DNA of 64,000 nucleotides from Dehalococcoidia bacterium. GTDB taxonomy: Bacteria; Chloroflexota; Dehalococcoidia; Lucifugimonadales; CAJWER01. Positions 33,805 to 64,000 of the stretch are shown here, piece by piece. A program made the position numbers and the translations under genes. The stretch lies in NCBI GenBank assembly GCA_965116315.1, contig OZ220672.1, forward strand, positions 1,636,777 through 1,700,776. Reading direction: 5' to 3'. Numbering within the stretch: the stretch's first letter is position 1; each line of letters begins with the position of its first letter. Below the pieces are notes generated by a model, which made no database searches, was not told the DNA's origin, and saw nothing but the letters and a program-made list of their open reading frames with translations.

Positions 33805-33889
33805 GGGGAAGTGTCGGAACTGGCAGACGAGCATGATTTAGGATCATGTGCCGCAAGGCGTCCGGGTTCGAGTCCCGGCTTCCCCACCA
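33805..33889 (+). tRNA. tRNA-Leu (anticodon UAG), CCA encoded
   Basis: Hand-folded. 7-bp acceptor stem GGGGAAG/CTTCCCC, anticodon stem CATGA/TCATG with loop TTTAGGA, long variable arm GCCGCAAGGCGT, T arm CCGGG-TTCGAGT-CCCGG, discriminator A + CCA. Confidence 0.9.
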
Positions 33890-35469
33890 TGACGTACCGA
33901 TTTGCGAACTCCGCCATTGAGGACGATTTCAGCGGAGTCCGCTCCCCCTAACGGACTGTCATCAGGCGTAGGCATCGAGTAGATGATGGCGGCCTTGCCG
34001 GGCTTGATCTGTATCTCCTTTACGAACGAGTGGACGAAGGCTTTGGTCTCGGTCAGCTCGCTGTCCTTGAGAAACTCGCTCATCTCCTCTGCGAAGGTGG
34101 CGATGGTGTCGGCGCTGTCCAGGTACTGCCGCCGCTCGGCCAGCACCGCCCGTGCCTCGTCTGAGGCGCTCTCCAGACTCTCCTTGCGCCTCTGCAACTC
34201 CACGATATGGTCCGAGGCGGCGGCGATGTCTACGCTGTCGCTCTTCGATATGAAGTGCCAGACGCGGCCCAGTTGCTTCTTCACCTCCTCAAGCTCCGCC
34301 TCGATGCTCTCCAGCTTCTGACGGTGCTCCAAGGCCGCTCCGTCCATCTCCTCGTCCAGGTGCTTTACCAGTTCTCTGATGTTGGACTCGGTGAGAACGT
34401 TGGCGCGAAGCTCATCGACGATGGTGTTCTCGATCTTCTTGGCATTGAGCCTGGGGGTCTTGCAGGTCCCGCTGCCCCTCTTCATCAGGGACTGGCAGAC
34501 GTAGTAGGTGTACTTGCCGCTCTTGGCCTCGGAGGCGGACATGGCCCTGCCGCAGGTCTCGCACTTGAGGATGCCGCTGAGCAGGTAGGGGCTGGACGCC
34601 CGGCGCGGGTTCGCCTGCTTCGGGGCGCGGGAGCCGAGTAGCTTCTTGACCCGCATGTATTCCCGCTTGCTGATGATGGCGGGGTGCGCGTTCTCCACCC
34701 GCACGGGCGGCTGGCGGTCCTTGGCGCTGATTCCCCACACCACGGCCCCCGTGTACGCTTCGTTGTCCAGCATGGCGTGGACGGTGGTCTTCTGCCACTT
34801 CTTGCCGTTGACCGTTGGGATGCCCTCGGCGTTGAGGGTCTTGGTGATGTCGAGGATGCTCCTGCCCTGTAGGGCCATGGCGAAGATGCGCCGGACCATT
34901 GCGTCGGCGGGCGGGTCTAGCTCCAGCCTGGGGCGCTTCTTCGCCCCGTCCTGTACGTGGACCCGCTTGTAGCCGTAGGGTGCGTAGGCCGACATCCAGA
35001 AGCCGCGTGACGCTGCCTCGCGCAACCCCCTGGAGACCTCCTGCGCCAGATTCTCCGAGTAAAATTCGTCCACGCTCTCGATGATGGCCTCCAGGAGCCT
35101 GCCGGTGGGGTTGTCCTCGGCCTGCTCGGTGATGGAGACCACGCGGATGCCCTTGCGCCTGAGCTTCGACTTGAAGGCGACGGCGTGCTCGCGTTTCCGC
35201 GTGAACCTTGAGAATTTCCAGACAAGAATCTCCTTGAAAGGGGCCTCGGGCTTTTCGGCTTCGTCCAGCATCTTCTGGAACTGGGGCCGAGCGGCAATAC
35301 GTCCGCTCTCGGCCTCGTCCACGTATTCGCGGACGATCATGTAGCCGTTCTTCTCGGCGTAGTCCCTGAGCGCCCGCAGCTGGGCGGCCACGGACAGGTC
35401 CACGTCCTGGCGGTCGCTGGAGACCCTGGCGTAGAGGGCTGCCGGCGTCAGATCGAATCGGTCGTTCAT
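33844..35469 (-). CDS. large serine recombinase (integrase)
   Basis: 541 aa from the in-frame ATG at 35469 (MNDRFDLTPAALYARVSSDRQ holds the catalytic Ser motif). Recombinase domain, zinc ribbon CETCG..YYVCQ..GTC, and coiled coil. The last ~15 codons are read from the complement of tRNA-Leu. Confidence 0.9.
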   Translation of the reverse strand: MNDRFDLTPAALYARVSSDRQDVDLSVAAQLRALRDYAEKNGYMIVREYVDEAESGRIAARPQFQKMLDEAEKPEAPFKEILVWKFSRFTRKREHAVAFKSKLRRKGIRVVSITEQAEDNPTGRLLEAIIESVDEFYSENLAQEVSRGLREAASRGFWMSAYAPYGYKRVHVQDGAKKRPRLELDPPADAMVRRIFAMALQGRSILDITKTLNAEGIPTVNGKKWQKTTVHAMLDNEAYTGAVVWGISAKDRQPPVRVENAHPAIISKREYMRVKKLLGSRAPKQANPRRASSPYLLSGILKCETCGRAMSASEAKSGKYTYYVCQSLMKRGSGTCKTPRLNAKKIENTIVDELRANVLTESNIRELVKHLDEEMDGAALEHRQKLESIEAELEEVKKQLGRVWHFISKSDSVDIAAASDHIVELQRRKESLESASDEARAVLAERRQYLDSADTIATFAEEMSEFLKDSELTETKAFVHSFVKEIQIKPGKAAIIYSMPTPDDSPLGGADSAEIVLNGGVRKSVRHGGEAGTRTRTPCGT

Positions 35470-35690
35470 CAGTCTCTCCTCCCTGTCTCTTCCTGTTCGT
35501 TCTGGCGGGAGCGCAGCCATTCCAGCCGCTCCCGTCTGCGCCACTCCCGCTCCTCCATGAACAGGCGGATGGCCTGCCTGAGCAACTCGCTCACGGAGAG
35601 GTCGTCCTTCTTCATCACACTCCGCACCTGCGCCTCCATCTCCGGGGGCAGGGAGAAGGTGATGGTCTTGGAACGCCTGGGGGTGGTCAT
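35469..35690 (-). CDS. ribbon-helix-helix (CopG/Arc-like) protein
   Basis: 73 aa. KTITFSLPPEMEAQVRSVMKKDDLSVSELLRQAIRLFM has the RHH pattern. Its stop overlaps the integrase ATG (ATGA). Confidence 0.7.
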   Translation of the reverse strand: MTTPRRSKTITFSLPPEMEAQVRSVMKKDDLSVSELLRQAIRLFMEEREWRRRERLEWLRSRQNEQEETGRRD

Positions 35691-35775
35691 GCTCTCTCTT
35701 TTTGCCTCTTGTTGTAGTGCTATGTCTTACAATACACTATCGAGGAACCGCATTGCAACTGTCTTGCCAGTGCCA

Positions 35776-36819
35776 TCACACGCCGTATCGCTCCCTCCAG
35801 TAACCTGCCCATTCTGCCGCTTCATCGGGGAGGGAACGGGTCACGGCGTCGAGCAGGGAAGATGGGGCCGCCATGTCGAACTGTGCGGCCGGTTCCTTCA
35901 AAGAAGCCCGCATCACAGCTTCCACCGTATCCAGTCCTGGGAATCGCCGGGCCAGCAAAGGAGAAGTGGTGGTCCTACCGTCGGAGATCGTTCGATAGGC
36001 CCAATTCTCCTGCGGCACTATCACCACCACTTTGGCCTCGTCGATTCCCAACTCGCCATCCTGGACCATGCGGTCTGCCAGAAGTCTCTGGCGCATGATC
36101 TGGTAGAACGGCTCATAGAGGAAATCGTCCAGGTCCGGCGCCACATCCAGATTGAAAGAGGAGAATGAAGCCCGGTAACGCTCGGCGTATCTCCGTCGGC
36201 GCGTGTCGCCTCGCGTCCCTTCGCCCATGAAATGAGGCCGAGTGCTCAGGTATTGCTCGACGTACTTCCACTCCAGAAGATAGGCCCGCCTTCTTCCCTT
36301 CGTGGTTACGGCGACGAGGAAGGCGTCGATGCTGGTGTTCTGAGCTCCCCTGGTCGTGCCTCCCTCCAGGGAACGGCCCAAGCCTATCCACTCGAACTCC
36401 ACGTCCGACTCATTTCCATTGTGAGAGATGTTCACCACACCTGCGACATCACCATCAAGGGTGCGTAGGACCGAAAGGAGCGCCCCTGGGATTCCGGCTA
36501 GGGGCAGCAGGAAGTTGACGCAGGCAACTTGGGAACTGGCCAGATTGCGGGTGGGGCCGTCTGACTTGGTGTCGTCGCCGCTCCTGGAGCTCTTCCACCA
36601 CTTGATCCCGCGCCGGGCGAAGAATTCGATGGCTCCGCCCTCTCCCCGGATGCCGGGATAGAGGTTGTCGAGCTCGCAGCCTATGGCCAGCAGATGGGGG
36701 TTGCGCACGCCCTTGTCGTCGGCAGGATGTCGCCCTTGGCCGCTGACTGTCGGAGATGCGTCCCTGAACAGCTGTTGTCGCCGTTTGGCTGACCGTTCAA
36801 AGCCGGTTCTTGATGGCAT
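35776..36819 (-). CDS. PD-(D/E)XK restriction-endonuclease-like protein
   Basis: Candidate nuclease motif IDAFLVAV...AYLLEWKY (D...ExK). LASSQVACVNFLLPL resembles the SSQ-containing motif of the PGN_0703-type putative restriction enzymes as I remember them. ATG at 36819 is preceded by GAGGAGAG; an alternative GTG is at 36864. Confidence 0.5.
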   Translation of the reverse strand: MPSRTGFERSAKRRQQLFRDASPTVSGQGRHPADDKGVRNPHLLAIGCELDNLYPGIRGEGGAIEFFARRGIKWWKSSRSGDDTKSDGPTRNLASSQVACVNFLLPLAGIPGALLSVLRTLDGDVAGVVNISHNGNESDVEFEWIGLGRSLEGGTTRGAQNTSIDAFLVAVTTKGRRRAYLLEWKYVEQYLSTRPHFMGEGTRGDTRRRRYAERYRASFSSFNLDVAPDLDDFLYEPFYQIMRQRLLADRMVQDGELGIDEAKVVVIVPQENWAYRTISDGRTTTSPLLARRFPGLDTVEAVMRASLKEPAAQFDMAAPSSLLDAVTRSLPDEAAEWAGYWRERYGV

Positions 36820-36880
36820 CCTCTTACTCTCCTCTGCCGTCGTGTCCACCTCAACTGGCTGCACAATCGGCTTGCAGGTC

Positions 36881-37813
36881 CTACCAGGGGCCGACCGCTG
36901 CCGCCGCCGCCACGGGCTTGCGCCTGCGCCCGGGCATGTCCGAGGCGATCATCTGAGGTCCGAGGACGGCGGCGTGGCTCTCGGGCACGGCGACGACCAC
37001 CACCCTCGCCAGCTTCCCGTTCCTGATGACGGGCCGGGCGAGGGCAGCATAGCCGCCGCCCAGGGCGAAGCGCGCTTCGCCGTAGCGGACAGCCTGTTCC
37101 GCCAGGGAGCCTGGGGGTATGGGCCTGCCCCAGCGGGGGATACCGCCCCGCTCTCCGCAGATGGGGAAGCCGGTCGGGTTGCCGAAGCCCCGCGTCCGCC
37201 GGACGACCTTGGCCCGCAGGTCGGGCAGCCTGCTTCCGTTCTTAGAGCCTATCCCGTCCTCCTGGGTGTACAGGACCACCATGAGGGGCGGGTCGCGCAG
37301 CACCTCGGCCAGCCGGATTGACACGGCGGCGTAGGAGCAGCGGAACGCCCGCTGCAACCTCAGCACGTCCAGGCCCCACTCCACGGCCAGTGGCTCGAAG
37401 GCCCTCGGCTGCATGAGCACTGCCGCAGCGAACCGCTCGGCCTGCCGGCACACCTTCCGGTCGGGCGGAGAGCCGGAGTCCATGTCGCAGAGGGTCTCGT
37501 AGATGATCTCGTAGGTCTCGTGTATCACCGAGTAGTCCTGCGTTCCCTCCCACAGGTCCTCCCGGTAGTGGATGTCGTAGCCGCCGCCCGGCGCGCTGTA
37601 GTGGATGCCCTTCACGTCCATGTGCCCGTTGCCCGACACCTCGCCGAACCCGGCCCGCTTCAGCAGGGCCTTCAACTGTTCCATCGAGGGACGGGCGGCC
37701 AGGTCGAAGTAGCGCACGAAGCGGGCGGCTAGGGTCTCAGGGTCTAGGGCCTCGCGGGGGCGTTCTTCCAGAAGGATGCGGCAGAAGTCCTCTCTCGTCC
37801 TGTTCATTCTCAC
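36881..37813 (-). CDS. ImmA/IrrE-family (COG2856) metallopeptidase-like protein with a C-terminal extension
   Basis: IHETYEIIYE sits at the position of HEXXH, followed by CRQAERFAAAVLMQPRAF (typical ImmA E..AN.FA..LLMP region). 310 aa. Overlaps the XRE gene stop. Confidence 0.65.
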   Translation of the reverse strand: MRMNRTREDFCRILLEERPREALDPETLAARFVRYFDLAARPSMEQLKALLKRAGFGEVSGNGHMDVKGIHYSAPGGGYDIHYREDLWEGTQDYSVIHETYEIIYETLCDMDSGSPPDRKVCRQAERFAAAVLMQPRAFEPLAVEWGLDVLRLQRAFRCSYAAVSIRLAEVLRDPPLMVVLYTQEDGIGSKNGSRLPDLRAKVVRRTRGFGNPTGFPICGERGGIPRWGRPIPPGSLAEQAVRYGEARFALGGGYAALARPVIRNGKLARVVVVAVPESHAAVLGPQMIASDMPGRRRKPVAAAAAVGPW

Positions 37814-38241
37814 TCCAGCAGCCTCTTATTGGCGAAACGCTCGTACATCTCGACGATGAACCGCTTGGTCTTCAGGGTGATGGGGCCGTCGGGCCGGGTG
37901 CCCACCCGGAACACAGGGTCGGCCAGGACGTACTGGTAGGCACGCTCCACCTCCATCGCCTCGTCGCTGAAGGGGTCGATGTGGGCCTCCCGCCCGGCCC
38001 TCTTCATCAGCTCCTCGGCGTCCACGTTGTAGAGGTGGGCCAGCTTGCGAACGACGTTTGAGCCGGGCATTCGGTCTCCCCGCTCTATCTGGGAGAGGTA
38101 GGAGCTGGAGACGCCGATGCGCTTGGTCACGTCCCGCAGGCTGAGGTCTCCCCGAAGCCGCCGGAGGAGCGGGCCTATGGCGTCGTCTCCCTCGATCTCG
38201 CGGCGTTCGTCCAGGTCCCGGTCGTCTTCAAGCTCGTCCAT
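37810..38241 (-). CDS. XRE-family HTH transcriptional regulator (ImmR-like)
   Basis: LRRLRGDLSLRDVTKRIGVSSSYLSQIERGDRMP is a canonical XRE HTH. First gene of the leftward operon. Confidence 0.85.
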   Translation of the reverse strand: MDELEDDRDLDERREIEGDDAIGPLLRRLRGDLSLRDVTKRIGVSSSYLSQIERGDRMPGSNVVRKLAHLYNVDAEELMKRAGREAHIDPFSDEAMEVERAYQYVLADPVFRVGTRPDGPITLKTKRFIVEMYERFANKRLLE

Positions 38242-38531: not shown

Positions 38532-38717
38532 GTGAACACCAAGCGAAGGCTTACGGCGAAGCAGGAGCGGCAGCGGACGGAGGGCCTGCGAATACTGGCC
38601 CGCATCATCGCTCGCCACTACCTGGCCAACCCTCACCTGTACCCCAACGGCTCCACCCCGGCCGACGGTCAGCAGGCCGATGACGGGAAGACGGCCCGAA
38701 GGGAGGACAGGGAGTGA
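38532..38717 (+). CDS. hypothetical small basic protein
   Basis: 61 aa, GTG start. Its stop overlaps the next gene's start (GTGA). No family recognised. Confidence 0.35.
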   Translation: MNTKRRLTAKQERQRTEGLRILARIIARHYLANPHLYPNGSTPADGQQADDGKTARREDRE

Positions 38718-38953
38718 AGCGGAGGCAGCCATCGTCGCGGGTGAAGCTCAACCCCCACGCCGTCTGGGACTTGCTCAACCGGCGCAACATGACCCAGAAC
38801 GAGTTGGCACGGCTTGTCGGCACCTCGTCCAGCTACCTCTCCCAACTGATGTCGGGGCATCGCTGCCCCTCGGCGGCCTTCCGCAAGAAGCTCATGGACG
38901 CCTTAGGCGTCACCGACTTTGACGACCTCTTCATCCTGGAGGCCGTCGAGTGA
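38714..38953 (+). CDS. XRE-family HTH protein (Cro-like position)
   Basis: 79 aa. MTQNELARLVGTSSSYLSQLMSG is an HTH. Coupled to both neighbours by GTGA overlaps. Confidence 0.8.
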   Translation: MKRRQPSSRVKLNPHAVWDLLNRRNMTQNELARLVGTSSSYLSQLMSGHRCPSAAFRKKLMDALGVTDFDDLFILEAVE

Positions 38954-39288
38954 GGCCCAGCTCCATGCCCCCGCGCCGTCTGCTCTTCTGCGACACCTCG
39001 CCACCGGAGGACTTCGGCGCGCGCCTGAAAGCCTTCAAGGAGGCCACGGGCCTCACGTGGGAGGGTCTGGCCGCGTGCTTGGGCGTGGACCTGCGGCAGC
39101 TTGAGCGGTGGCGCGACGGCACGAACCCCGGCTGGAAGGGGACCTGCGCCCTGGTGAAGCTGGCGTCCACCATTCCAGGCGGCCTTCACATGCTGTTCGG
39201 GGTGCATGTCCTTCCACCCTCCGGCTGGGTGTTGCAGCCTCCGCTGTCGGCGGGTTCCAGGCGTCATACGAACGGCAAGGGAGGCTAG
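38950..39288 (+). CDS. small HTH-like protein, paralogue 1 of 3
   Basis: PEDFGARLKAFKEATGLTWEGLAACLGVDLRQLERWRDG..LVKLASTIPGG aligns with the next two genes. Confidence 0.5.
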   Translation: MRPSSMPPRRLLFCDTSPPEDFGARLKAFKEATGLTWEGLAACLGVDLRQLERWRDGTNPGWKGTCALVKLASTIPGGLHMLFGVHVLPPSGWVLQPPLSAGSRRHTNGKGG

Positions 39289-39292
39289 GGAC

Positions 39293-39604
39293 GTGGCAGA
39301 GCAGCGCAGAGCGCATGGGCTGCCAGTCGTGTGGGTCTTCCCGCCGGACTTCCCGGAGCGGCTGGCGCTGTTTCAAGAGGAGAGCGGCCTGTCCACGCGG
39401 GGCCTGGCCCGTCTGTTGGGAGTCAACCCCGACCGCATCAGGAAGTGGAAGAGCGGGGCCGTGGCCCCCAACCACACCCATCTCTTCGCGCTTTACACCA
39501 TCGCCGGAGCGATGGGCCTGCGGGACGGGATTCTGATGCAGGGCGACCAGGACCTTGCCGAGGGGGTGGACGCGGCGGTCCTGCGGGCGATGAAGCGGAC
39601 GTAG
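39293..39604 (+). CDS. small HTH-like protein, paralogue 2 of 3
   Basis: 103 aa from the in-frame GTG at 39293, preceded by AAGGGAGG. PPDFPERLALFQEESGLSTRGLARLLGVNPDRIRKWKSG. Confidence 0.55.
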   Translation: MAEQRRAHGLPVVWVFPPDFPERLALFQEESGLSTRGLARLLGVNPDRIRKWKSGAVAPNHTHLFALYTIAGAMGLRDGILMQGDQDLAEGVDAAVLRAMKRT

Positions 39605-39635
39605 AGACGTTCTTGAAACAGAGGAGGAGAGACCA

Positions 39636-39917
39636 ATGACGACTGAGGTACGGAAGCGAACGTTGAACCACCGGCCACCGCTCTTTCCCGAAGACTTCGG
39701 GGAGCGGCTGGAGCGGTTGAAGGAAATGTCGGGTCTGCCGTGGGGCGAGTTCTCCGAGCGACTCGGCGTGACGCAGACGGGCCTGAGAAAGTGGCGCAAT
39801 GGAGGGCCGCCCTCGGGGGCCTATTTCTGGGCGATTCTGAAGCTGGCCCGCGAGATTCCCGGAGGCTTCGACCTGATCATGCACGGCGGCGACGGCATGG
39901 AAGGGCATGAGGGCTGA
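39636..39917 (+). CDS. small HTH-like protein, paralogue 3 of 3
   Basis: 93 aa. PEDFGERLERLKEMSGLPWGEFSERLGVTQTGLRKWRNG..ILKLAREIPGG. Confidence 0.6.
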   Translation: MTTEVRKRTLNHRPPLFPEDFGERLERLKEMSGLPWGEFSERLGVTQTGLRKWRNGGPPSGAYFWAILKLAREIPGGFDLIMHGGDGMEGHEG

Positions 39918-40057
39918 GGGTGCCATCCAGAGGCGCTGAGGCTCCCGACCAGCGAAGGAGGGCCGGGCGGAGTGAACCGCCCGGCCCTCCTTTCGTTCTC
40001 CTCTACCCAGCCCCGCGCATGTCGGCGACCGCTCTATTGCTCTGCCGTGCGGTCGGG

Positions 40058-40504
40058 CTACTCCTCCGCCTCTTCGGCCCAGAAGGATGCCAGGAGCGTC
40101 TCGGGAGAGTCGTAACGCCGGTCGATCCACCAGGCGGCGTCGGACTGGGCCTTCAGCGGTTCGAGCACCCTCTCCTTCTGCGCCTCGAAGAACTCCGTGT
40201 CCTTCGCCACCCTTCCCTTCAGTTGCCCGCTGTCCCGCAGGTGATCCAGGTGCGCCTCGGCATCGGAGAGAGCCTCGTGGCGGAGGGTGAGCGCCCAGGC
40301 TGTCTGCTTGGGCGTCCCGGTAAGCGCGGGGAGCCCCTCGCCCTCCGCCACCGCTTCAGCCTGCGCCCTCTGACTCTCGATGTAGCAGGGTCGGCAGGTC
40401 CGCGCCCGCTCCCGACGCAGCTTGAGATCCAGGCGCTCTTCGGAGCCGCGCATCTTCACGACCTCTGAGTGCCCGCAGGCCCGGACGATCGTTTGCTTCG
40501 CCAT
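40058..40504 (-). CDS. hypothetical protein with an N-terminal Cys/His cluster
   Basis: 148 aa from the in-frame ATG at 40504 (MAKQTIVRACGHSEVV...TCRPCY). Acidic C-terminus. No family recognised. Confidence 0.5.
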   Translation of the reverse strand: MAKQTIVRACGHSEVVKMRGSEERLDLKLRRERARTCRPCYIESQRAQAEAVAEGEGLPALTGTPKQTAWALTLRHEALSDAEAHLDHLRDSGQLKGRVAKDTEFFEAQKERVLEPLKAQSDAAWWIDRRYDSPETLLASFWAEEAEE

Positions 40505-40748
40505 CTCCCGTCGCTCATTCTCAGATACCAACCATGTTACATCCGGGAGCCGCCCGGCGTCCGCTGCAATCCAGCGAGACCTGAACCCCGGGATTGCTCT
40601 GTCCTGCCCATCTGTCGGACAATGGGGCATAGCCCCATATACCCATAGACGACGTGAAGGCGCTCGCCGACCGCTTCGGTCCCCGCAGCGATGCGGACAT
40701 CCCTTTCATCCGAAGGGGCCGGGACGGAGATCGGGGGAGGTTCGAGCA

Positions 40749-53021: not shown

Positions 53022-53354
53022 CTAGGGGGTGGGGAACGGGACGAGGCCGCTTCTCAGCAGCGCGGCGACACCTTTGGCCAAGAGCACCAGCACCAGGCCA
53101 ACGACCGCCATCACCACGGCGGTCCTGGCCCTGCCGCCGCCCCGGTCGTCCGCGCCCTCGGCCATCAGGACGAAGCCCGCCCAGACGATGGCGAAGAGAC
53201 AGAGGCCGGAGGCGGCGTAGGCCATCGCGGTGAGAACCTCGTCGAAGGCCGCGAGCATGGTCCGCTCCTCCGGTGGGGCCGCGCCGGTGGTCGCCAGCGC
53301 GGCCCCAGCCAGCAGCGTTGCCGTCAGCAAACGCCTCACCACGGCCACTCCCAT
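53022..53354 (-). CDS. TrbC/VirB2-like pilin candidate (second copy)
   Basis: About 110 aa. Signal-like N-terminus MGVAVVRRLLTATLLAGAALATTGA, then two hydrophobic helices separated by a short charged loop. An alternative GTG start is at 53372. Confidence 0.5.
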   Translation of the reverse strand: MGVAVVRRLLTATLLAGAALATTGAAPPEERTMLAAFDEVLTAMAYAASGLCLFAIVWAGFVLMAEGADDRGGGRARTAVVMAVVGLVLVLLAKGVAALLRSGLVPFPTP

Positions 53355-55066: not shown

Positions 55067-55363
55067 CTATCCGCCGCTGGTGTCAGGGGTGGGCGCAGGC
55101 GTGGGGTCGGGAACCGTGACGTCCACCGGCGATCCGACGACCGCGTTCATCACCAGTTCGACGACGCCGTAGGCCACCATCGCCAGGACGATGCCCGCCA
55201 GGGCGGTCATCATGGCGCTCTTGCCGCGCTCCATCTGGTGGGGCGCTCCCGACGCGGTGAGGTACATGTAGGCCCCGTAGATAAAGAAGCCCACGCCGAC
55301 TACGCCGACGATCCCCAGCAGGATGCCCACCAGGTTCGATATGGTCTGAGTCAGGTCTTCCAT
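55067..55363 (-). CDS. TrbC/VirB2-like pilin candidate
   Basis: 98 aa from the in-frame ATG at 55363, with GAGGAG 8 nt upstream. Two hydrophobic helices flank the loop YLTASGAPHQMERGKS. Confidence 0.55.
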   Translation of the reverse strand: MEDLTQTISNLVGILLGIVGVVGVGFFIYGAYMYLTASGAPHQMERGKSAMMTALAGIVLAMVAYGVVELVMNAVVGSPVDVTVPDPTPAPTPDTSGG

Positions 55364-55530
55364 TCGTTTGTCTCCTCTCGTTTCCTCTGCCGGGCGTTCC
55401 CCGCCCGGACTTCCTCGGTTCATCCGTCTCTATCGGTGTTGTCCGTCTCGCTTCAGTTACTTGCACATCGCTCCACCTCCTTCGCGTTCTCGGTCGGCGT
55501 GGGGCCGCGCCCCCGCCGAATGGGTTGTCG

Positions 55531-56517: not shown

Positions 56518-57135
56518 CTACCCTCCCCGGCAGTTGTCGGCGTCCTCGCCGGACGCTCGCTCAACCACCCCGCAGAGAGTCCCGTGGACTCCCTCGATCA
56601 CCCAGCCCGCGAAGGCCCTCGCCCAGCGAGCGGGGTTGAGAGCAGCCAGAATCTTGTCCCAGATACGGCCCGGCTCGTGGACGGGCACGACGGCGTAGAA
56701 GTCGCCACGCCTGCCGTCCTCTGCCTCGGCCAGCATCACCAGCAGGTATGCGTGGTCGGGGTCGAGGTCGGGCTGCTCGTCCAGGCGTGGGTACTCCCAC
56801 GAGTACTCCCAGCCGTCGCTGCGCCGCTTCTCGCCGCCCGACACGCGGTACATGGTCGATATCCAGTCGCCTGTGTCGGCGTCCCGCACGGCGTAGTAGA
56901 GGCTCGCTATCTCGCGGTCGAAGACGGGGCGGGCGACGAACTCGCCGCCCTTCTTGCGCTCCACGAACTCCCGGTCCCAGTTGACCAGGACGATGGAGTC
57001 GCCGGGCGGGGCCTGTGCCAGGGCGACGTTGCTCGCGGGGATCGCCGCCAGCGCCGCCAACAGCAGCGCGGCGGCCAGGGGAACGAGCCTTCCGGCTCTT
57101 CCAAGGTTCCGTCGGACGGTCGATTGCGCTCCCAC
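56518..57135 (-). CDS. secreted hypothetical protein (first gene of the T4SS operon)
   Basis: 205 aa. GTG start with GAGGAGG 7 nt upstream. Signal peptide LVPLAAALLLAALAAIPASNVALA. No family recognised. Confidence 0.5.
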   Translation of the reverse strand: MGAQSTVRRNLGRAGRLVPLAAALLLAALAAIPASNVALAQAPPGDSIVLVNWDREFVERKKGGEFVARPVFDREIASLYYAVRDADTGDWISTMYRVSGGEKRRSDGWEYSWEYPRLDEQPDLDPDHAYLLVMLAEAEDGRRGDFYAVVPVHEPGRIWDKILAALNPARWARAFAGWVIEGVHGTLCGVVERASGEDADNCRGG

Positions 57136-57451: not shown

Positions 57452-57527
57452 GTGGACAAAACGCCGGTGGGCCAAGCGAAGGTGAGTGGACAGTGACAGC
57501 TATGGAAGTTGACAAAACGCCGGTGGG
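57452..57527. promoter_or_regulatory. 20-nt direct repeat pair GT(G/T)GACAAAACGCCGGTGGG spaced 56 bp apart
   Basis: Copies at 57452-57471 and 57508-57527. The second lies inside the first codons of ORF 57493. Confidence 0.45.
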
Positions 57528-58377
57528 GGCCGAGACGGGGCCTGACGTGGTGGATTTCTTCCCTGAAGCGACTCGGAGGCTGGACAGTCTGCGGCACATG
57601 CGGTTGTTGGCGCTGCTGCACGACATGATCGACGCCGGAGACGGTGCGACGACGGCGGCTGCGTTGGGTGTCAGCTACAGAACTGTGTCGAGGGCGGTCC
57701 GGTCAGGCACGCTGACCGACCGCATGGCGAGTGCGCTGGAGCGTCACCTGCTGCTGGGGGGCGGCTCTGCTGCCGCCCAGCAACGGGAGCAGGTCGAGAA
57801 TCTGGAGAAGCGGGTTGCGGAATTGGAGCGTGACCTGGGTGGTCGCCTCGATGCCGCCGTAAGAGAGGTCAAGTCCCTGCGGGAGGAGTACGCCAGGGCG
57901 ATGCGGCACGTGGAGCGCCGCCTGGTGGGTCTGGAATCTAGCAGGAGTGGCTCCGGGGAGCCCTCCTCGACCGGCCAGGAGCCGGATCCCGCGGAGCAAG
58001 GGTATGTCCGCCCCAGGGAGTACCCCCAGCTCGTGACTGAGGAGGCCGAACCCGACGAGGAGCGAGTGTACGGCGACGCAACGCCGGTGGTCGTTCAGTG
58101 GCGCACGGCGCGGGACAAGTGGCGGGCGCTGCTGAAGTCCGGGCCGGCTCTGGCGACGGCGGAGGCCAAGATGCAGATGCTGAAGCTGGAGATCGCCATC
58201 ATCGAGGAGCACGAGCTGACGTTGCCCCCGGCCTCGTACCCCTGGGGGCGGGAGGACCGGCGAGACCAGGCCAGGCGGCGCATGGGGGCGCTGGACGAGG
58301 CGGAGGATGACCGGAGACGGGCGCTGTTCCGGCGGTGGGTGCGCCGCATTCTGACCTGCTGGCTGTGGCGGAACTAG
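57493..58377 (+). CDS. HTH + coiled-coil protein (putative ICE regulator)
   Basis: 294 aa. TTAAALGVSYRTVSRAVRSG is HTH-like, followed by a long heptad-like region (QQREQVENLEKRVAELERDL). The true start may be downstream because of the repeat in codons 6-12. Confidence 0.5.
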   Translation: MTAMEVDKTPVGAETGPDVVDFFPEATRRLDSLRHMRLLALLHDMIDAGDGATTAAALGVSYRTVSRAVRSGTLTDRMASALERHLLLGGGSAAAQQREQVENLEKRVAELERDLGGRLDAAVREVKSLREEYARAMRHVERRLVGLESSRSGSGEPSSTGQEPDPAEQGYVRPREYPQLVTEEAEPDEERVYGDATPVVVQWRTARDKWRALLKSGPALATAEAKMQMLKLEIAIIEEHELTLPPASYPWGREDRRDQARRRMGALDEAEDDRRRALFRRWVRRILTCWLWRN

Positions 58378-58392
58378 GCCCCTGGGCTTCCC

Positions 58393-58414
58393 TGCGAAAT
58401 GGGTGCGAAATCGG
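58393..58414. repeat. tandem 11-mers TGCGAAATGGG / TGCGAAATCGG (iteron-like)
   Basis: Two adjacent copies with one-helical-turn periodicity, followed by a third, degenerate GCAATCGGGG. They sit at the start of a 628-bp gene-free stretch. Confidence 0.4.
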
Positions 58415-59005
58415 AGCGAGCAATCGGGGCGTCATGGGTCGATTTCCCCGTCCGGGGCCTTCCATTCGCTCGGTTGTTCGGGCGATAATTGACGCAGTTT
58501 CTGGCTTTTTCCAGCGTTTCCCGCCTAGAAACCTGGAGGGTCCATCCCCGACCCGGAGCGGCCTGACGGATCGAGCCCTGCTCTCCCGATGGCGCTTCAC
58601 GAGGGATAAGCGCCTTCCCGCTGCGTGAGCCGGTCGAGGGGTCGAGCACTGCTCCCCCGATGCCGGTTCGGAAGTCGGGACACATTCGCAGAGGCTGAGG
58701 CGCAGACCGCGCTTCGGCTCCTCGGACACCTTGGTCGGAGTGCGTCCCGCACCCCGGCCATTCCTCATGCCTGCGGCACAACCGTCACGCGGTTGGGTCG
58801 CAGCTTCCACGCACGCCGTCCTGCGATGACACCGCTGGGCTGCGTCGCTCTCACCGCGTCGGTCTCGGACTGATCTGCAGGCGGACCGCAATTCCCCACC
58901 CACACCAGCTCACCCTCAGTCGCCTCTTCGTGATGTGACCCTGGGCCGAGCTGCGTCTTTTCACGGCGTCAGAAGCATCGAGCATCGAAAGGAGGTCACG
59001 ACGGC

Positions 59006-59518
59006 ATGGACGAAACACGGACACGGACAACGGAAGGAGGAACGAACATGGCGGAACGGTACACGGGACCCAGTGCGAGGCGGATCGCGGACCTGCTTCC
59101 GCACCGGGTGAGCTACGAGAGGGGCTGGTTCTGGACGACGACGGCCATCTGTCACGGCGGTCGCTCGGACGGGCTGGCGTTCAGGCAGAGGCCGGACGGC
59201 GAGGGCATCGAGGTCAGGTGCCACACGGGGAACTGCGGCAAGGGCGTGGTCATAACCGAGCTGGAGGCACTGGTCGGGCTGCCCATCTGGACGGCCTTCG
59301 AACCGGTGGTGGAAGTGACTGACAAGGCCCCTGGGAAGCGGCCCTGGTGGAAGCGGAAGAAGGTCGTGGTGGCCGGGATCGTGGCACTGGTGATTGCGGC
59401 GCCGCTCCTGACCCTCGACCTGGAACTGTTCTTCCTCAACCTCTTCGGCCTGGGAATCGGGGCGCTGCTGCTCAGGCGGTTCCTCGTGCGGCGCACGGTG
59501 CGCAGGTTCCGGCGCTGA
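59006..59518 (+). CDS. membrane-anchored protein with a primase-type Cys/His zinc motif
   Basis: AICHGGRSDGLAFRQRPDGEGIEVRCHTGNCG resembles the CxH...CHxGC zinc-binding modules of plasmid/phage primases. C-terminal TM region. An alternative ATG at 59048 also has an AGGAGG. Confidence 0.45.
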   Translation: MDETRTRTTEGGTNMAERYTGPSARRIADLLPHRVSYERGWFWTTTAICHGGRSDGLAFRQRPDGEGIEVRCHTGNCGKGVVITELEALVGLPIWTAFEPVVEVTDKAPGKRPWWKRKKVVVAGIVALVIAAPLLTLDLELFFLNLFGLGIGALLLRRFLVRRTVRRFRR

Positions 59519-59557
59519 CCGGGCGGGTTTCAGCCCTCTCACAACCCATTCAACGCA

Positions 59558-59587
59558 AAGGGTCGCCTCCATCCGGGGGCGGCCCTT
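59558..59587 (+). terminator. 10-bp stem hairpin followed by a T-rich tract
   Basis: AAGGGTCGCC-TCCATCCGGG-GGCGGCCCTT, then CTTCTTTGCC, 40 nt after the stop of 59006..59518. Member of the ICE-specific hairpin family. Confidence 0.45.
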
Positions 59588-59650
59588 CTTCTTTGCCCGC
59601 AAGCGGGCGCAGATCGAAGGCAACGCAAAGCAAAGGCACTTAGGAGGTGC

Positions 59651-60124
59651 ATGATGACAACGGCGACATTGGCAGCAGGCAATCGGACGATGGGCACGGC
59701 GGTGAGGCCCGGGCGCAGCCTGGAGGAGCTGGTCGACCGGCTCTTCGAGGCGATGGGGTTCGGGCAGGCGACGGAGACGGCGGAGCAGAGCGCGGTGCGT
59801 TCGATTCACGAGGCGCGGCGGCTCAGGCAGGCCGGGGACGTGGACGGCGGGCTGGCCGTCCTCGCCGGCATGGACATGGCGAGGGCGGAGACGCGGGAGG
59901 TCCGGTGGGCCTTCGCCGAGTGGAAGCAGCTTGTGAGGCGGCGGTTCGGGGGCCGGGAGGTCATGGTGTACAGCCAGGGCACGGGCCGGGCCGCCGCCCT
60001 GTTGTCCCACGGAGACAGCGGGACGCTCGAGGTCGCGGCGGTCCTGGGGATGCGGTGGAAGACCGGCAAGCTGGTCTCCCGGCGCAGTCTGCGGGGTCTG
60101 CGGCCCCTGAACGGGGGTGCATGA
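59651..60124 (+). CDS. hypothetical protein
   Basis: 157 aa with AGGAGG upstream. Its stop overlaps the primase start (ATGA). No family recognised. Confidence 0.45.
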   Translation: MMTTATLAAGNRTMGTAVRPGRSLEELVDRLFEAMGFGQATETAEQSAVRSIHEARRLRQAGDVDGGLAVLAGMDMARAETREVRWAFAEWKQLVRRRFGGREVMVYSQGTGRAAALLSHGDSGTLEVAAVLGMRWKTGKLVSRRSLRGLRPLNGGA

Positions 60125-61161
60125 TGGTCACGGCCAACGTGGACATACCCGCGCTGAAGGCCCGTCACCCCCTGGGCGACACGGTGGAGGCTTCGGGCGT
60201 CCGGCTCAGGGGCCGGGGCCGTGTCCGCCAGGGCGTCTGCCCCTTCCACGAAGAGGTTGAGGGCAGCTTCACGGTGTACGCCGACTCGGAGCGGTGGTAC
60301 TGCTTCGGCTGCGGGCTTAGGGGAGACGTGCTGGACTTCATCCGGCAGTCCGAGAACCTGAGCCTGCCGGAGGCCATCAGGCGGCTTGACGGGGGCGCTT
60401 ACCCCGCCGTCAGCCGTCCGGCCCCGGCTCGGCGTCCCAGGGCGGCTCCGCCGCCTCCCAGGGACCCGGCGCTCTTGACGGCGGCGGCTCGGTTCTACGC
60501 CGGGCAGCTCCGGCGCAGCCCCGCCGGGCTTGACTACCTTGCCTCGCGGGGCCTCGGCCCTGACGCCGCCGTGCGGCTCGGCCTCGGCTTCGCGCCGGGC
60601 GACGGCCTGCGGCACGCTCTTGAGTCGGCTGGCTTCTCCGCCGACAGGCTGAGGAACTGCGGTCTGTTCACCGAGCGGGGTTCGGAGCGGTTCGCCGGGA
60701 TGGTGGTCGTTCCCGACCTCTCCGGCGGGCTTGTCCGCTGGCTAGTGGGCCGGGCCGTCGATGCCCACCGGACTCCCCGGTTCCAGGCGTTGCCCGGCCC
60801 CAAGCCGGTGCTTGGACTTGGGCGTCTCGGCCCCGCTCCGCCCTGGGCGGTCGTTGCCGAGGGCGTCTTCGACTGGCTCGCGCTTGCTTCCTGGGGCGTC
60901 CCCGCCGTCGCTGCCCTGGGCACCCAGGGCGTCGAGCGAGTGGCCTCGGCCCTCCGTGGCTGCCCCCGCGTCTTCCTCGCCTTCGACAACGACGACGTGG
61001 GCCTTGAGGCGACGGAGGGGCTTGCGGTCTTGCTTGGCAGGCGGACCGCAGCCGTCACCCTTCCCCAGGGCGTCGGCGACGTGGCCGAGCTTGCTTCCCT
61101 CCCCCAGGGGCGCTCCCTGTTCATGCGGCTGCTCGCACGTGCGGCCCGCTCCGCCCGGTAG
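60121..61161 (+). CDS. DnaG-like primase (CHC2 zinc finger + Toprim)
   Basis: 346 aa from the in-frame ATG at 60121. The zinc finger is CPFHEEVEGSFTVYADSERWYCFGCG..GDVLDF. The Toprim region includes WAVVAEGVFDWLAL and LAFDNDDVG. Confidence 0.8.
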   Translation: MMVTANVDIPALKARHPLGDTVEASGVRLRGRGRVRQGVCPFHEEVEGSFTVYADSERWYCFGCGLRGDVLDFIRQSENLSLPEAIRRLDGGAYPAVSRPAPARRPRAAPPPPRDPALLTAAARFYAGQLRRSPAGLDYLASRGLGPDAAVRLGLGFAPGDGLRHALESAGFSADRLRNCGLFTERGSERFAGMVVVPDLSGGLVRWLVGRAVDAHRTPRFQALPGPKPVLGLGRLGPAPPWAVVAEGVFDWLALASWGVPAVAALGTQGVERVASALRGCPRVFLAFDNDDVGLEATEGLAVLLGRRTAAVTLPQGVGDVAELASLPQGRSLFMRLLARAARSAR

Positions 61162-61370: not shown

Positions 61371-62234
61371 ATGTCTAACGGCAACAACAACGGACACCAC
61401 CGCAACGGCGTCCACCAGGACACCGCCATCGTAGCCAGGAACGGCAACGGGGCGCACCACGACCCCGCCATCATCGAGGGACACGACCCCGCATCGAGTG
61501 CGGGGCAGGCTCTGCTGTGGGACGGGCTGCCGCCCGCCGTCACGCAGGCCCTCGGACAGCCCATCGCCCCCTCGCTGGTCTCCCAGCGCAAGGGGCGCGG
61601 CGGCAGGGTCTTCGACTACCTCGAAGGCCACGTCGTCATCGACCAGGCAAACCGCATCTTCGGCTACGGCGGGTGGGGCTACGAGCTGGTCTCGGACGTG
61701 AGGCTGCGCCAGATCGAGTCGGTCGATCCCCAGACGGGCGAGATCAAGACCGTCTCCGCCTACAGCGCCCCCGTGAGAGTCACCGTCGCGGGCGCTCTGC
61801 CCCGCACCGACACCGGCTTCCACGCCGTGACCGACGAGACCGCGGACGGACACGACACGGCGATGAAAGGGGCCGTCACGGACGGGATGAAGCGGGCCTT
61901 CCGCAGCTTCGGCGTCCAGTTCGGCAACGGCTTCTACGGAGACCAGCAGACGGTGGGCAACCAGCCCCGGCCTGAGCGTGCGCCGGTCCAGGCGCAGGCC
62001 AGCGGCACGTCGGGGCAGGCTCAGAGCGGGCGCAACGGCTCCCAGACGAAGACCCTCCGCAAGCGGCTCGTCGAACTGGCCGGGCGGCAGGGCTTCGACG
62101 AGGCGAAGGTGCGGGCCGCCGTCCAGAGGCAGATGGACAAGGACCTGGACGACCTGACGGCGGACGAGCTGAGGAAGCTGGTGGAGTCCGCCGCCGACAA
62201 GCTCAACCAGAAGCGGCAGGCGCAGGCCGCCTAG
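61371..62234 (+). CDS. Rad52/Rad22-family single-strand annealing protein
   Basis: VFDYLEGHVVIDQANRIFGYGGWGYE ... AMKGAVTDGMKRAFRSFGVQFGNGFYG matches the Rad52 core. Confidence 0.8.
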   Translation: MSNGNNNGHHRNGVHQDTAIVARNGNGAHHDPAIIEGHDPASSAGQALLWDGLPPAVTQALGQPIAPSLVSQRKGRGGRVFDYLEGHVVIDQANRIFGYGGWGYELVSDVRLRQIESVDPQTGEIKTVSAYSAPVRVTVAGALPRTDTGFHAVTDETADGHDTAMKGAVTDGMKRAFRSFGVQFGNGFYGDQQTVGNQPRPERAPVQAQASGTSGQAQSGRNGSQTKTLRKRLVELAGRQGFDEAKVRAAVQRQMDKDLDDLTADELRKLVESAADKLNQKRQAQAA

Positions 62235-62322: not shown

Positions 62323-62826
62323 ATGGTGACGACGACCTTGACTTACACACCCTGGGGTTGGACGAAGGACGTTGCCGAGCTGGCGGAGGGCGTCTGGAGA
62401 GTGTCCACGCCGAGCCACGGCGGGCTGAAGCTCAGCCGGGAGCGGTGGAACGAGCTTCCCGCCGAGCTGCGGGACGCCATGTACACGCAGACCTTCGCCG
62501 AGGAGGACTGCGAGGAGCCGATGGTCCGCACGCTGCTGGGCCTGGGCGACGAGTGCGAGAGAGAGATGGCCCTGAAGGTGGCGGGCTACTTCGACCGCTA
62601 CTCTCCGGCGCTCCCCTACCTCCGCGACTGCCCGCCGGGCAGCCACCACCACGCCGTCTCCCACCGGGGCGGCTACGGGACGGACCCCCTGGAGCGGTTC
62701 GACACCTGCATCGAGGCCGAGTCGTTTGCCAACGACCCGGAGATGGTGCGGAGGTACGGACGGATGGAGGCCGTGGAGTGCAGCCGGACCCGCCCGCTCT
62801 GCCGGGCGGAAGGGGGAAGGCCATGA
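62323..62826 (+). CDS. DUF7007-like protein
   Basis: 167 aa. YTPWGWTKDVAELAEGVWRVSTPSHGGLKLS matches my recollection of the DUF7007 N-terminal signature common on plasmids and ICEs. Confidence 0.5.
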   Translation: MVTTTLTYTPWGWTKDVAELAEGVWRVSTPSHGGLKLSRERWNELPAELRDAMYTQTFAEEDCEEPMVRTLLGLGDECEREMALKVAGYFDRYSPALPYLRDCPPGSHHHAVSHRGGYGTDPLERFDTCIEAESFANDPEMVRRYGRMEAVECSRTRPLCRAEGGRP

Positions 62827-63224: not shown

Positions 63225-63237
63225 GCGGCTTGCGCAA

Positions 63238-63264
63238 CGGGGCTGTCTCCACCGGGCGGCCCCG
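63238..63264 (+). other. intercistronic hairpin, ICE-specific family
   Basis: CGGGGC-TGTCTCCACCGGGCG-GCCCCG. A TACAGGA motif follows at 63274-63280. Confidence 0.45.
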
Positions 63265-63298
63265 CTTCCCATCTACAGGACACAAGGAGGCAATGACG

Positions 63299-64000
63299 AT
63301 GACAACGACGACTACCGACAGGGCGGAGGTCTTCTCCCGTCCTGCGGCGAAGATCAACGACGACGGCGAGCTGGTGGTGCGGGCCTCGGCGGCCCTGGGC
63401 TGCCGCCGCTCCCTCTGGTACTCGGCGACGGGCTACCAGCCGACCAATCCCCCCGGCGACGACTCGCTGACGGCGATGGAGGCGGGCAACGCCCTTGAGC
63501 CGGTGGTGGTGCGGGCGATGGAGCGGGCTGGCTGGAAGGTGGACGCCGCCGACTCCCAGGACCCGCAGCAGGTGGCGGTGCGCATCGGCCCCGGACTGCT
63601 GGTGACGGGACACCCGGACGGCACGGCGCGGATGCCCCTCCCCGAAGACGAGGCGGCGGCCCAGGTCCAAATGCTCCTGTTCGGGGACGTGTCGGACACT
63701 CCCGCCTACGGGACGGAGATGGTGGTCGAAATCAAGACCAGGGGGCCGGAGGCGTTCAGGCGGTGGCAGACCCTGGGGGCCGAGCGCAGCCACCCGCAGG
63801 CGGTGGCCCAGGCCGCCCTCTACACCCTGGGAAACTACGACGACCTTCGGGACGCCGTGATAGCCACGATGGACACGGGCGGCAGGACGTGGGACTACGA
63901 GGTCATCCCCGCCGACCGGCTGGAGAAGGCCCTCCAGGACGCCTGCGCATGGCTCGGCGAGCTGGGGGCGCACCACACCCGGAACGGGCCGGACCCCGAC
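63299..64000 (+). CDS. PD-(D/E)XK nuclease (RecB/Cas4/YqaJ-like), 3'-truncated by the window edge
   Basis: Hand-translated; absent from the ORF track because no stop occurs. MTTTTTDRAEV...LLVTGHPDG...EMVVEIKTRG...AVAQAALYTLG gives D, ExK and QxxxY motifs. AAGGAGG lies 8 nt before the ATG at 63299. The frame stays open to 64000. Confidence 0.65.
   Translation, partial: MTTTTTDRAEVFSRPAAKINDDGELVVRASAALGCRRSLWYSATGYQPTNPPGDDSLTAMEAGNALEPVVVRAMERAGWKVDAADSQDPQQVAVRIGPGLLVTGHPDGTARMPLPEDEAAAQVQMLLFGDVSDTPAYGTEMVVEIKTRGPEAFRRWQTLGAERSHPQAVAQAALYTLGNYDDLRDAVIATMDTGGRTWDYEVIPADRLEKALQDACAWLGELGAHHTRNGPDPD

Follow-up and report, generated by a model that had tools for sequence, protein, structure and literature searches.

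The window analysed here, a stretch of 64,000 nucleotides (bases 1,636,777-1,700,776 of contig OZ220672.1), belongs to the single-contig, 4.19-Mb genome of a soil Dehalococcoidia bacterium (Chloroflexota); positions above 64,000 are window-equivalent positions on the same contig. Because the G+C content is high (~66%), we chose reading frames by codon-position GC and then scanned them for domains using Pfam, NCBIfam, PHROGs and PADLOC. To the right of hrcA and dnaJ, the window contains a tRNA-Leu(TAG) gene followed by an element, here called E1, which spans 33,890 to ~87,185 (53.3 kb) and ends 23 kb past the window (Table 1). An initial annotation, made from the letters of the window, had read this right part as an integrative conjugative element (ICE) that starts at the tRNA gene and carries a type IV secretion system (T4SS) of Gram-positive type. 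The ICE reading is supported, and both ends of the element were located.

The tRNA-Leu gene, which has identical counterparts in two same-genus genomes, ends in an encoded CCACCA (33884-33889), and this is the sole direct repeat at both ends of E1. The initial annotation had expected a direct repeat of the tRNA-Leu 3' segment at the right attachment (att) site. A whole-genome search with 15-30-mers gave just an unrelated T-arm 15-mer, and the search therefore turned to inverted arms. Directly after the tRNA, TGA is followed by an 18-bp sequence, CGTACCGATTTGCGAACT (33893-33910), and its exact reverse complement was seen at 87155-87172 on reading past the Vsr gene. This terminal inverted repeat is perfect over 18 bp and extends to 24 bp with two mismatches. 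CCACCA closes E1 at the right end (...CGGTACGCCTTGGCCCACCA) and is the tRNA's own 3' end at the left. The 18-mer occurs exactly four times in the 4.19 Mb, as two inverted pairs, one bracketing E1 and the other a second element, E2. Thus, the junction sequence and the terminal repeat bear out the tRNA gene as the left boundary, and the ends, an inverted repeat around a shared CCACCA, fit a large serine recombinase and not a tRNA-fragment repeat. Since ends of this kind are inverted, the lack of a second att repeat, once proposed as a refutation of the element, was the wrong test.

Beside the left junction (attL) lies the integrase gene, whose product combines a Resolvase domain with the active-site Ser (catalytic motif YARVSSDRQ), a Recombinase domain and a zinc ribbon, as in large serine recombinases; its best NCBIfam match is CcrB (2.7e-40). 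E1 thus has an integrase and defined ends inside the chromosome. The last 14 codons and the stop of this gene sit in the reverse complement of tRNA-Leu, past the crossover. The frame crosses attL (33844-33889) as ...VRH followed by GGEAGTRTRTPCGT and a stop, and the tail of the circular form, derived by hand, reads ...VRH followed by GGPRRTDLRTFRWEVFI and a stop. The protein would therefore have a different 14-residue end in the integrated and the circular form; nothing indicates that this difference is functionally important. The ribbon-helix-helix (RHH) protein is kept in E2 at 90% identity and is a candidate regulator or directionality factor. The XRE/ImmA pair (88-97% identical in E2) resembles the switch module of ICEBs1, where the XRE repressor ImmR and the M78 (ImmA/IrrE) peptidase ImmA are likewise co-transcribed towards the integrase; the E1 pair is a putative switch, and ICEBs1 differs from E1 in its tyrosine integrase and MOBT relaxase.

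Farther right, E1 has a conjugation module containing both a VirB4-family ATPase and a type IV coupling protein (T4CP). The second-best model for VirB4 is that of the Mycoplasma ICE VirB4, and scores were lower for the F-type and VirB4/CagE models; TIGR00929 matched at 2.8e-25. Its only PDB sequence match is Thermoanaerobacter VirB4 (4AG5, 1.5e-26); PDB sequence searches returned nothing significant for the relaxase candidate, the 569-aa protein or the exonuclease. VirB4 had 1,112 plasmid matches, overwhelmingly in monoderm genera, with the best identity (33-34%) in Streptomyces/Embleya. Like the VirB4 of monoderm ICEs, it matches the CD1110 family, although it is only 23-34% identical to any plasmid-borne relative. 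These affinities support the 'Gram-positive' typing. The T4CP scored 30.4 bits with TrwB_AAD_bind (cutoff 20.5) and is 29% identical to an annotated T4CP (6e-37). Adjoining it is a Replic_Relax protein (39.7 bits against a cutoff of 25.3). The initial annotation had listed this protein but seen no canonical relaxase. The domain has a PD-(D/E)XK fold (PMC3424549) and is typed as MOBC by CONJscan (PF13814; PMC5357655), and by this published equivalence the protein is a candidate MOBC-type relaxase.

The T4SS_pilin, TrbL/VirB6 and PrgI-like genes share one operon with virB4. The PrgI-like protein is predicted to have a two-transmembrane (TM) N-terminus, a basic linker, a third TM segment and a ~370-aa, beta-rich extracellular domain. 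Its first 40 residues align with the start of a protein annotated as PrgI-family, which has the same place in the T4SS cluster of an Embleya plasmid, so that the earlier PrgI-like call found support at the N-terminus and none from Pfam. No VirB7/9/10 outer-membrane core domain was found in the E1 proteins scanned, as expected of MPF_FATA systems. Gram-positive T4SS classes (MPF_FATA) are normally without VirB2-type pilins (PMC12102498), whereas E1 has two VirB2-like genes, one clearly above the Pfam cutoff. The VirB4 affinities thus support a T4SS of monoderm type, and the pilins recall the variant known from Patescibacteria. Of the other proteins proposed for the element, the integrase, RHH, XRE/ImmA, VirB4, coupling protein, VirB6-like protein, two pilin-like proteins, Replic_Relax, CHC2-Toprim primase, Rad52, DUF7007 and RecB-like nuclease were recovered by the Pfam, NCBIfam and PHROGs scans, with RHH at the cutoff and TrbL and the first pilin just below it.

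The serine integrase, the XRE/ImmA switch and the phage-like pair of Rad52 and a RecE/Cas4-like exonuclease would also suit a prophage or phage-plasmid. Yet the scans (Pfam/PHROGs) of the tested E1 proteins across the 53 kb found no virion structural gene (capsid, portal, terminase or tail) and no lysis gene, and a full set of T4SS, T4CP and relaxase-candidate genes is present; we regard a phage origin as hardly credible. It is instead very likely that the segment from 33,890 to ~87,185 is one ICE in a Dehalococcoidia chromosome.

Table 1. Features of E1 and its junctions, in window or window-equivalent coordinates.
Feature	Position	Strand	Basis and remarks
tRNA-Leu(TAG)	33805..33889	+	ARAGORN; B arm of attB/attL
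Left end of E1 (P' arm)	33890..33916	.	TGA, then 18-bp terminal inverted repeat
Large serine recombinase (integrase), 566 aa	33844..35544	-	Pfam Resolvase + Recombinase + Zn_ribbon_recom, E 5e-34, all above cutoff
RHH (CopG-like) protein	35469..35690	-	Pfam RHH_1, E 4e-4, at threshold; overlaps integrase start
PD-(D/E)XK nuclease (REase-ARP / PDDEXK_13)	35776..36864	-	E1-specific insertion, absent from E2
ImmA/IrrE M78 peptidase	36881..37813	-	Pfam
XRE repressor	37810..38241	-	Pfam
Four small helix-turn-helix (HTH) proteins, rightward operon	38532..39917	+	Pfam HTH_3/HTH_31
Two E1-specific proteins (182 aa, 560 aa)	39920..42104	+	Absent from E2
TmtA-like (Tiamat defence) ATPase with DUF3883/NOV_C, 1124 aa	42179..45553	-	PADLOC TmtA 1e-156; Pfam
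DUF3800 protein, conserved backbone	45659..46414	-	Pfam; present in E2, E4, E5
Putative relaxase, winged HTH domains + Replic_Relax (PD-(D/E)XK), 541 aa	46445..48070	-	Pfam PF13814, 7e-10
Type IV coupling protein (VirD4/TraD-like), 875 aa, 2 TM	48073..50700	-	Pfam TrwB_AAD_bind/TraG-D_C
VirB4-type ATPase, monoderm (MPF_FATA-like)	50735..53002	-	NCBIfam CD1110 family, 2.8e-67
Small membrane protein, VirB2/TrbC-like pilin	53022..53372	-	T4SS_pilin 26.0 bits (cutoff 26.6); 3 hydrophobic segments
PrgI/VirB3-like protein, 569 aa	53336..55045	-	N-terminal alignment + TM prediction
VirB2-like T4SS pilin	55067..55423	-	Pfam T4SS_pilin, 3.2e-12, 46.8 bits
VirB6/TrbL-like polytopic membrane protein, 5 TM	55531..56511	-	Pfam TrbL 5e-5, 23.6 bits, just below cutoff
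Secreted 205-aa protein, first gene of transfer operon	56518..57135	-	Signal-peptide-like N-terminus; kept in all copies
294-aa, 170-aa, 157-aa proteins, start of rightward operon	57493..60124	+	Kept among copies
DnaG-type primase (CHC2 + Toprim), start codon approximate	60130..61161	+	Zn_ribbon_DnaG 1.5e-17; Toprim_2 1.3e-8; frame from GC3 phase
Rad52/22 annealase	61371..62234	+	Pfam
DUF7007 protein	62323..62826	+	Pfam
Cas4/RecE-like PD-(D/E)XK (RecB-fold) exonuclease	62726..64399	+	PHROG Cas4-domain exonuclease 2.5e-15; passes window end
DUF2958, single-stranded DNA-binding protein (SSB), RadC, DUF6094 methyltransferase, SNF2 helicase	to 71.3 kb		Pfam; same operon
HKD-Snf2 helicase + type IIG restriction-modification (RM) enzyme (2e-281)	defence block, 71.8-87 kb		PADLOC/Pfam
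HNH protein	defence block, 71.8-87 kb		
CBASS-type cyclase (2e-97) + SLOG/DprA-like effector	defence block, 71.8-87 kb		PADLOC/Pfam
Dcm + HATPase-type restriction enzyme + Vsr	defence block, 71.8-87 kb		
Right end of E1	87155-87185	.	AGTTCGCAAATCGGTACG-CCTTGGCCCACCA

E2, bracketed by the second 18-mer pair, is a 47-kb sister copy beside tRNA-Ala(TGC) (host-genome positions 2,495,121-2,542,365; window-equivalent 858,345-905,589). The integrase/RHH, ImmA/XRE, transfer and replication-recombination blocks are common to E1 and E2 at 82-95% nucleotide identity, and the cargo differs. The ratio of nonsynonymous to synonymous substitution (dN/dS) between the two was lowest for VirB4 (0.13) and SNF2 (0.15), followed by the integrase (0.20) and the T4CP (0.38), which points to evolution under purifying selection; all backbone open reading frames (ORFs) are intact. 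When the E2 flanks were joined at CCACCA and used as a 620-nt query, one contiguous match was obtained, in the same-genus genome G008 (88% over all 620 nt). This precise empty site in a congener shows that the inferred ends are real insertion ends. The search for an empty chromosomal site (attB) proposed earlier was therefore answered for E2; the corresponding E1 site was not recovered. The tRNA-Ala(TGC) gene of E2 directly follows the 16S rRNA gene at its 3' end (...GGATCACCTCCTTTCT), so that a 47-kb ICE occupies the place of the rRNA operon spacer continuation. In the same-genus genome without E2, this tRNA-Ala lacks an encoded CCA.

Searches with E1 proteins (tblastn) revealed at least six T4SS-bearing copies in the host genome, with VirB4 83-92% identical, plus fragments. 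The copies E3-E6 have the transfer backbone in common with E1 (VirB4 83-89% identical) without an E1-type integrase, which only E1 and E2 carry. E5 adjoins a serine recombinase that is only 25% identical, and others lie next to distant serine recombinases or none; the integration module is therefore exchangeable among related ICEs. E3 (~339-372 kb, window-equivalent) is in inverted orientation. Distant integrase paralogues (44-52% identity) are found beside the CCA ends of tRNA-Val and tRNA-Asp genes, with other arm sequences.

Among GTDB species genomes, we found at least 562 VirB4 relatives, and the best 80 of these, often several per genome, are 84-96% identical. All 80 are in metagenome-assembled genomes (MAGs) labelled Dehalococcoidia or Chloroflexi/Chloroflexota, which supports the earlier guess, borne out here, of a Chloroflexota host. 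Of 301 evenly sampled Chloroflexota genomes, 71 had a VirB4 homologue; outside the host genome only two had a close one (88-89%), and the next best was ~41% identical. The VirB4 lineage of E1, judged from these identities, is a tight, recently spreading one. If the genes at the tRNA were a conserved chromosomal core, as the initial annotation had allowed, related genomes should show them in place; the conjugation genes recur instead as mobile copies at different tRNAs.

This distribution also bears on the idea that E1 is a serine-recombinase island whose T4SS serves DNA uptake or release, or contact-dependent secretion, roles that have been suggested for most T4SS of Patescibacteria, and not its own conjugation. 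A monoderm-type VirB4 with VirB2-like pilins is indeed what the Patescibacteria systems have (PMC12102498), and no oriT (origin of transfer), adhesin or cell-wall hydrolase was identified in E1. Most Patescibacteria clusters, however, do not have a relaxase, and E1 has a MOBC-type candidate beside its T4CP together with an integrase, a primase, SSB and anti-restriction-type genes. Further, the multi-copy occurrence in many species, with VirB4 84-96% identical among the best 80 of at least 562 relatives, points to self-transfer. We consider a T4SS devoted to other tasks very improbable.

The integration specificity of E1 was approached through its ends. A scan of GTDB species genomes with the 18-mer gave at least 118 stretches, almost all in Dehalococcoidia/Chloroflexota, and 81 ends could be oriented and classified: 29 left-type (...CCACCA, then TGA or ACA, then the repeat) and 52 right-type (the repeat, then CCTTGGCCCACCA and variants). 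At 17 of the 29 left ends, a complete tRNA ended exactly 3 nt before the repeat. These tRNAs belong to eight species (Glu-TTC, Ala-CGC, Ala-GGC, Leu-TAG, Lys-TTT, Met-CAT, Val-GAC and Ile-GAT). Of the other 12 left ends, most adjoin a further element at its GGCCCACCA end, which indicates tandem arrays. No tRNA abutted any right end (0/52); the orientation is therefore fixed, as expected of an asymmetric central dinucleotide. This count also ruled out that the core of the element's site (attP) mimics a tRNA end on both strands (CC-ACCA / GG-GCCA) and inserts in either orientation.

The extracted integrases formed two clades, which match the TGA and ACA variants, and tRNA targets were mixed within each. 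The E1 integrase shares 95.9% identity with one at another tRNA-Leu, 95.8% with one at tRNA-Ala(CGC) and 93.0% with one at tRNA-Val; further, two integrases that are 98.0% identical lie at tRNA-Ala(GGC) and tRNA-Ile, respectively. Such near-identical integrases at different tRNAs indicate recent insertions. Across 15 distinct target arms, the consensus is no more than GGTTCGAgTCC...CCACCA, and downstream of the tRNA nothing is conserved past ACCA. In the host genome, 43 of 53 ARAGORN tRNA calls have an encoded CCA, and arm-like sequences of the same or related families follow six tRNAs. The exact 18-mer was also present on contigs binned as Acidimicrobiaceae, Caldilineaceae and Symbiobacteriaceae (L120, L161 and L168; the context of L168 is atypical of an end), which could be mis-binning or transfer beyond Dehalococcoidia.

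The reconstructed attP (52 bp) consists of two 24-bp inverted arms, AGTTCGCAAATCGGTACGCCTTGG and CCATGACGTACCGATTTGCGAACT, around CCCA, and is identical to attB over 6-7 bp. By symmetry, the attP is centred on the CC equivalent to tRNA positions 71-72. Both of its arms, as well as the arms of two other families, carry GTTCG 24 bp from the centre, and in attB the GTTCGA of the T-loop lies 18 bp from the centre. The zinc-ribbon domain of a serine integrase was shown to recognize a distal motif that lies at positions 16-24 in attP and ~5 bp inward in attB (Rutherford et al., PMC3783163); the displacement of GTTCG would approximately fit this scheme. An inverted GTTCGAnTCC was also observed 18-19 bp from the inferred crossover in 9 of the 52 downstream (B') arms, the spacing of the tRNA arm, with ~0.2 expected by chance for a fixed position. 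Eight of these loci with inverted GTTCGA(G/A)TCC, spotted by eye, were L095, L117, L133, L138, L150, L162, L167 and L172; ARAGORN found no tRNA in these flanks. These flanks may be preferred pseudo-palindromic attB sites or may reflect rearrangement between elements.

On balance, we lean slightly towards the view that a clade of serine integrases reads generic tRNA 3' architecture (the T-loop GTTCGA at a fixed distance and ...CC-A-CCA), with a conjugation module that would link MPF_FATA with the pilin-bearing T4SS of Patescibacteria. The large serine recombinase at the left end would recombine attP of the element with the 3' end of a tRNA gene, with crossover inside the CCACCA common to both, where CC at tRNA positions 71-72 is the most likely point. 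The attP junction of the excised circle would read ...CGGTACGCCTTGGCCCACCATGACGTACCG.... Because the P' arm of the element would supply A73-CCA, tRNA-Leu would stay intact. What the integrase seems to recognize is shared by tRNAs in general, namely GTTCGA of the T-loop at a set spacing and the 3' end ...CC-A-CCA, and such generic reading would explain both the near-identical integrases at Leu, Ala, Val, Ile, Met, Lys and Glu tRNAs and the tandem pile-up of elements. Excision is probably under the control of the XRE/ImmA pair and the RHH protein. The excised DNA would be nicked by the MOBC-type Replic_Relax protein and fed by the T4CP to a minimal monoderm-type T4SS composed of VirB4, the PrgI/VirB3-like protein, VirB6, two VirB2-like pilins and the secreted protein. 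In the recipient, the primase, SSB, Rad52, Cas4/RecE-like exonuclease, RadC, orphan methyltransferase and SNF2 helicase would act in replication, recombination and anti-restriction.

Several observations weigh against these readings. The TrbL, first-pilin and RHH matches are at or just below Pfam cutoffs, the PrgI-like protein has no Pfam match, and no oriT, cell-wall hydrolase or adhesin was identified. The motif shift is 6 bp here and 5 bp in the published model (PMC3783163), and the crossover dinucleotide and T-loop reading are inferred from symmetry and spacing. No contiguous match to the empty site of E1 itself was found in 40 relatives; its right flank is a ~90-bp arm remnant of another element family, and the nearest genomes have broken synteny there. 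The attP junction pattern had 0 matches in metagenome contigs and genome contigs, and no excised circle was found. This last result, together with surrounding att sites that resemble a graveyard of remnant arms, is what would be expected if E1 were a fixed relic that keeps its genes and ends and has lost excision and transfer. Against that stand the intact backbone ORFs under purifying selection (dN/dS 0.13-0.38), the perfect terminal repeats, which are identical to at least 118 sites in other species, the recent insertion implied by near-identical integrases at different tRNAs, and the sister copy E2 with its precise empty site in a congener. We therefore find a relic unlikely. As judged from its sequence, E1 is a complete, probably active ICE and represents a Dehalococcoidia family not described before; it is built of parts of known kinds, and its integration specificity and copy behaviour are unusual.

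The ~90-bp unit at the right flank (CCGCTACGGTAGATACCGCTATCTTCGAGATG...) directly follows CCACCA (87,186-87,280). It also occurs at host-genome positions 132,446 and 1,779,745, and after CCACCA/tRNA ends in many related genomes, and it resembles the left arm of a different family of serine-integrase elements. An Rfam scan of this unit and the attR region gave one weak chance match and nothing else. At least three other arm families with a GGCCCACCA core were seen (ACGGTAGACAGAACC, GTTCTTGATTT..TCCAG and GTTTGTAGCTAAGACTTACGGGGACTCGAACT). Farther right lie two small genes, a cluster of repetitive extragenic palindromes (REPs) at 88.3-88.7 kb, and genes for a formamidase, a glyoxalase, ArsR and an S15 peptidase.

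The initial annotation had taken the absence of five REP families as an independent mark of the boundary. We recovered the five families and found none (with up to 3 mismatches) between window positions 31,360 and 88,315; they resume 1.1 kb right of attR. As an independent marker of the boundary, this absence proved weak. REP-free gaps of 45-306 kb are common in the host genome, and that of E1 is only the ninth longest, so that the marker is supportive and not decisive. Several of the eleven longest gaps hold ICE-family DNA (E1 and E2 fit closely, and E3-E6 overlap), and REP absence therefore tracks foreign DNA. A 306-kb REP-free stretch (88.7-394.7 kb, window-equivalent) starts just right of E1 and includes E3; foreign DNA may have accreted there over a large zone.

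The remaining genes of E1 are partly cargo. Phage-defence genes lie in the right arm and in an internal low-GC insert: the region of the TmtA-like gene has a G+C content of 52-54%, and in the defence block (71.8-87 kb; 57-62%) genes were identified up to 86.9 kb (Pfam, PADLOC). The 182-aa and 560-aa E1-specific proteins had no Pfam, NCBIfam or PHROG match, and the 560-aa ORF contains an internal duplication (41047-42064; blocks ~550 bp apart, 82% and 71% identical). The 294-aa, 170-aa and 157-aa proteins had no family match (Pfam, PHROGs). Two copies of a 41-nt motif (TGGACA..GGAAAGTGGACAAAACGCCGGTGGG) lie 56 bp apart where the transfer and rightward operons diverge (57431-57527), and a weaker copy lies inside the PD-(D/E)XK nuclease gene (36515-36555); the motif is a candidate operator or oriT-associated repeat. 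ARAGORN further called a 98-nt tRNA-Thr(GGT) at 59869-59966, inside coding sequence, which is probably a false call. An Rfam gathering scan of 33-64 kb returned nothing, and since it also missed the genuine tRNA-Leu, it is no help here.

Among known systems, the ssrA islands of Dehalococcoides (DsiB; McMurdie et al. 2011, PMC3146451) come from the same host class. Like them, E1 has a CcrB-like large serine recombinase on the reverse strand beside attL, is inserted at the 3' end of a tRNA or tRNA-like gene that is left intact, and belongs to elements that accumulate in tandem. The ssrA islands use only the tmRNA gene, with a 20-bp direct repeat, whereas E1 and its relatives use ordinary tRNAs (tRNA-Leu for E1) with a core of 6-7 bp and inverted arms of 18-24 bp. 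The ssrA islands also have a second small recombinase, DsiA, and no conjugation genes, and were read as integrative mobilizable elements (IMEs) (PMC3146451). No DsiA-like second small serine recombinase was found in the E1 window proteins scanned with Pfam. Unlike these islands, E1 has a T4SS, a T4CP and a relaxase candidate; it is likened to DsiB by position, strand and CcrB-likeness only.

MPF_FATA ICEs and IMEs (Clostridioides CTn-type elements and streptococcal IME class 8; PMC5357655) combine a serine integrase with MOBC and VirD4, as does E1 with its candidate MOBC relaxase. Firmicute serine-integrase elements insert inside protein-coding genes (PMC5704250), whereas E1 lies at a tRNA gene. 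The order PrgI-family protein, small protein, VirB4, T4CP and replication-relaxation protein is the same in an Embleya/Streptomyces plasmid cluster (NZ_CP108778.1), with VirB4 33% and T4CP 29% identical to those of E1. That cluster is plasmid-borne and has an NlpC/P60 hydrolase, with no annotated pilin or serine integrase nearby; MOB-suite classes the plasmid as non-mobilizable. The T4SS of Patescibacteria, the sister lineage of Chloroflexota, resembles that of E1 in its monoderm-type VirB4, PF18895/TrbC VirB2-like pilins, PrgI/VirB3 and VirB6 (PMC12102498). Most Patescibacteria clusters, however, are chromosomal, non-mobile and single-copy, without a relaxase, in contrast to the multi-copy E1 with its relaxase candidate, T4CP and integrase.

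Full-text literature searches found no paper on conjugation in Chloroflexota, where it is essentially undescribed. The present results allow a complete, delimitable ICE family to be defined, which accounts for several per cent of one genome and is present in hundreds of Dehalococcoidia species genomes. This family carries defence systems along with it (Tiamat-like, type IIG RM, CBASS-like and Dcm/Vsr RM) and uses the same attP at eight or more tRNA species. For island finding, it provides a rule, the 18-mer arm plus CCACCA; tools based on tRNA fragments will miss such islands. It is also a natural test of the attB/attP zinc-ribbon spacing model, and the E1 integrase is a candidate with a small, conserved target. 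If the generic reading of tRNAs is true, any tRNA with such an acceptor end would be an attB, and each regenerated tRNA would be a target again. This would account for multi-copy ICEs, for arrays in which different arm families stand in tandem beside one tRNA, and for a very successful lineage across soil Dehalococcoidia, and would make the E1 family the first serine-integrase system described as targeting ordinary tRNA genes.

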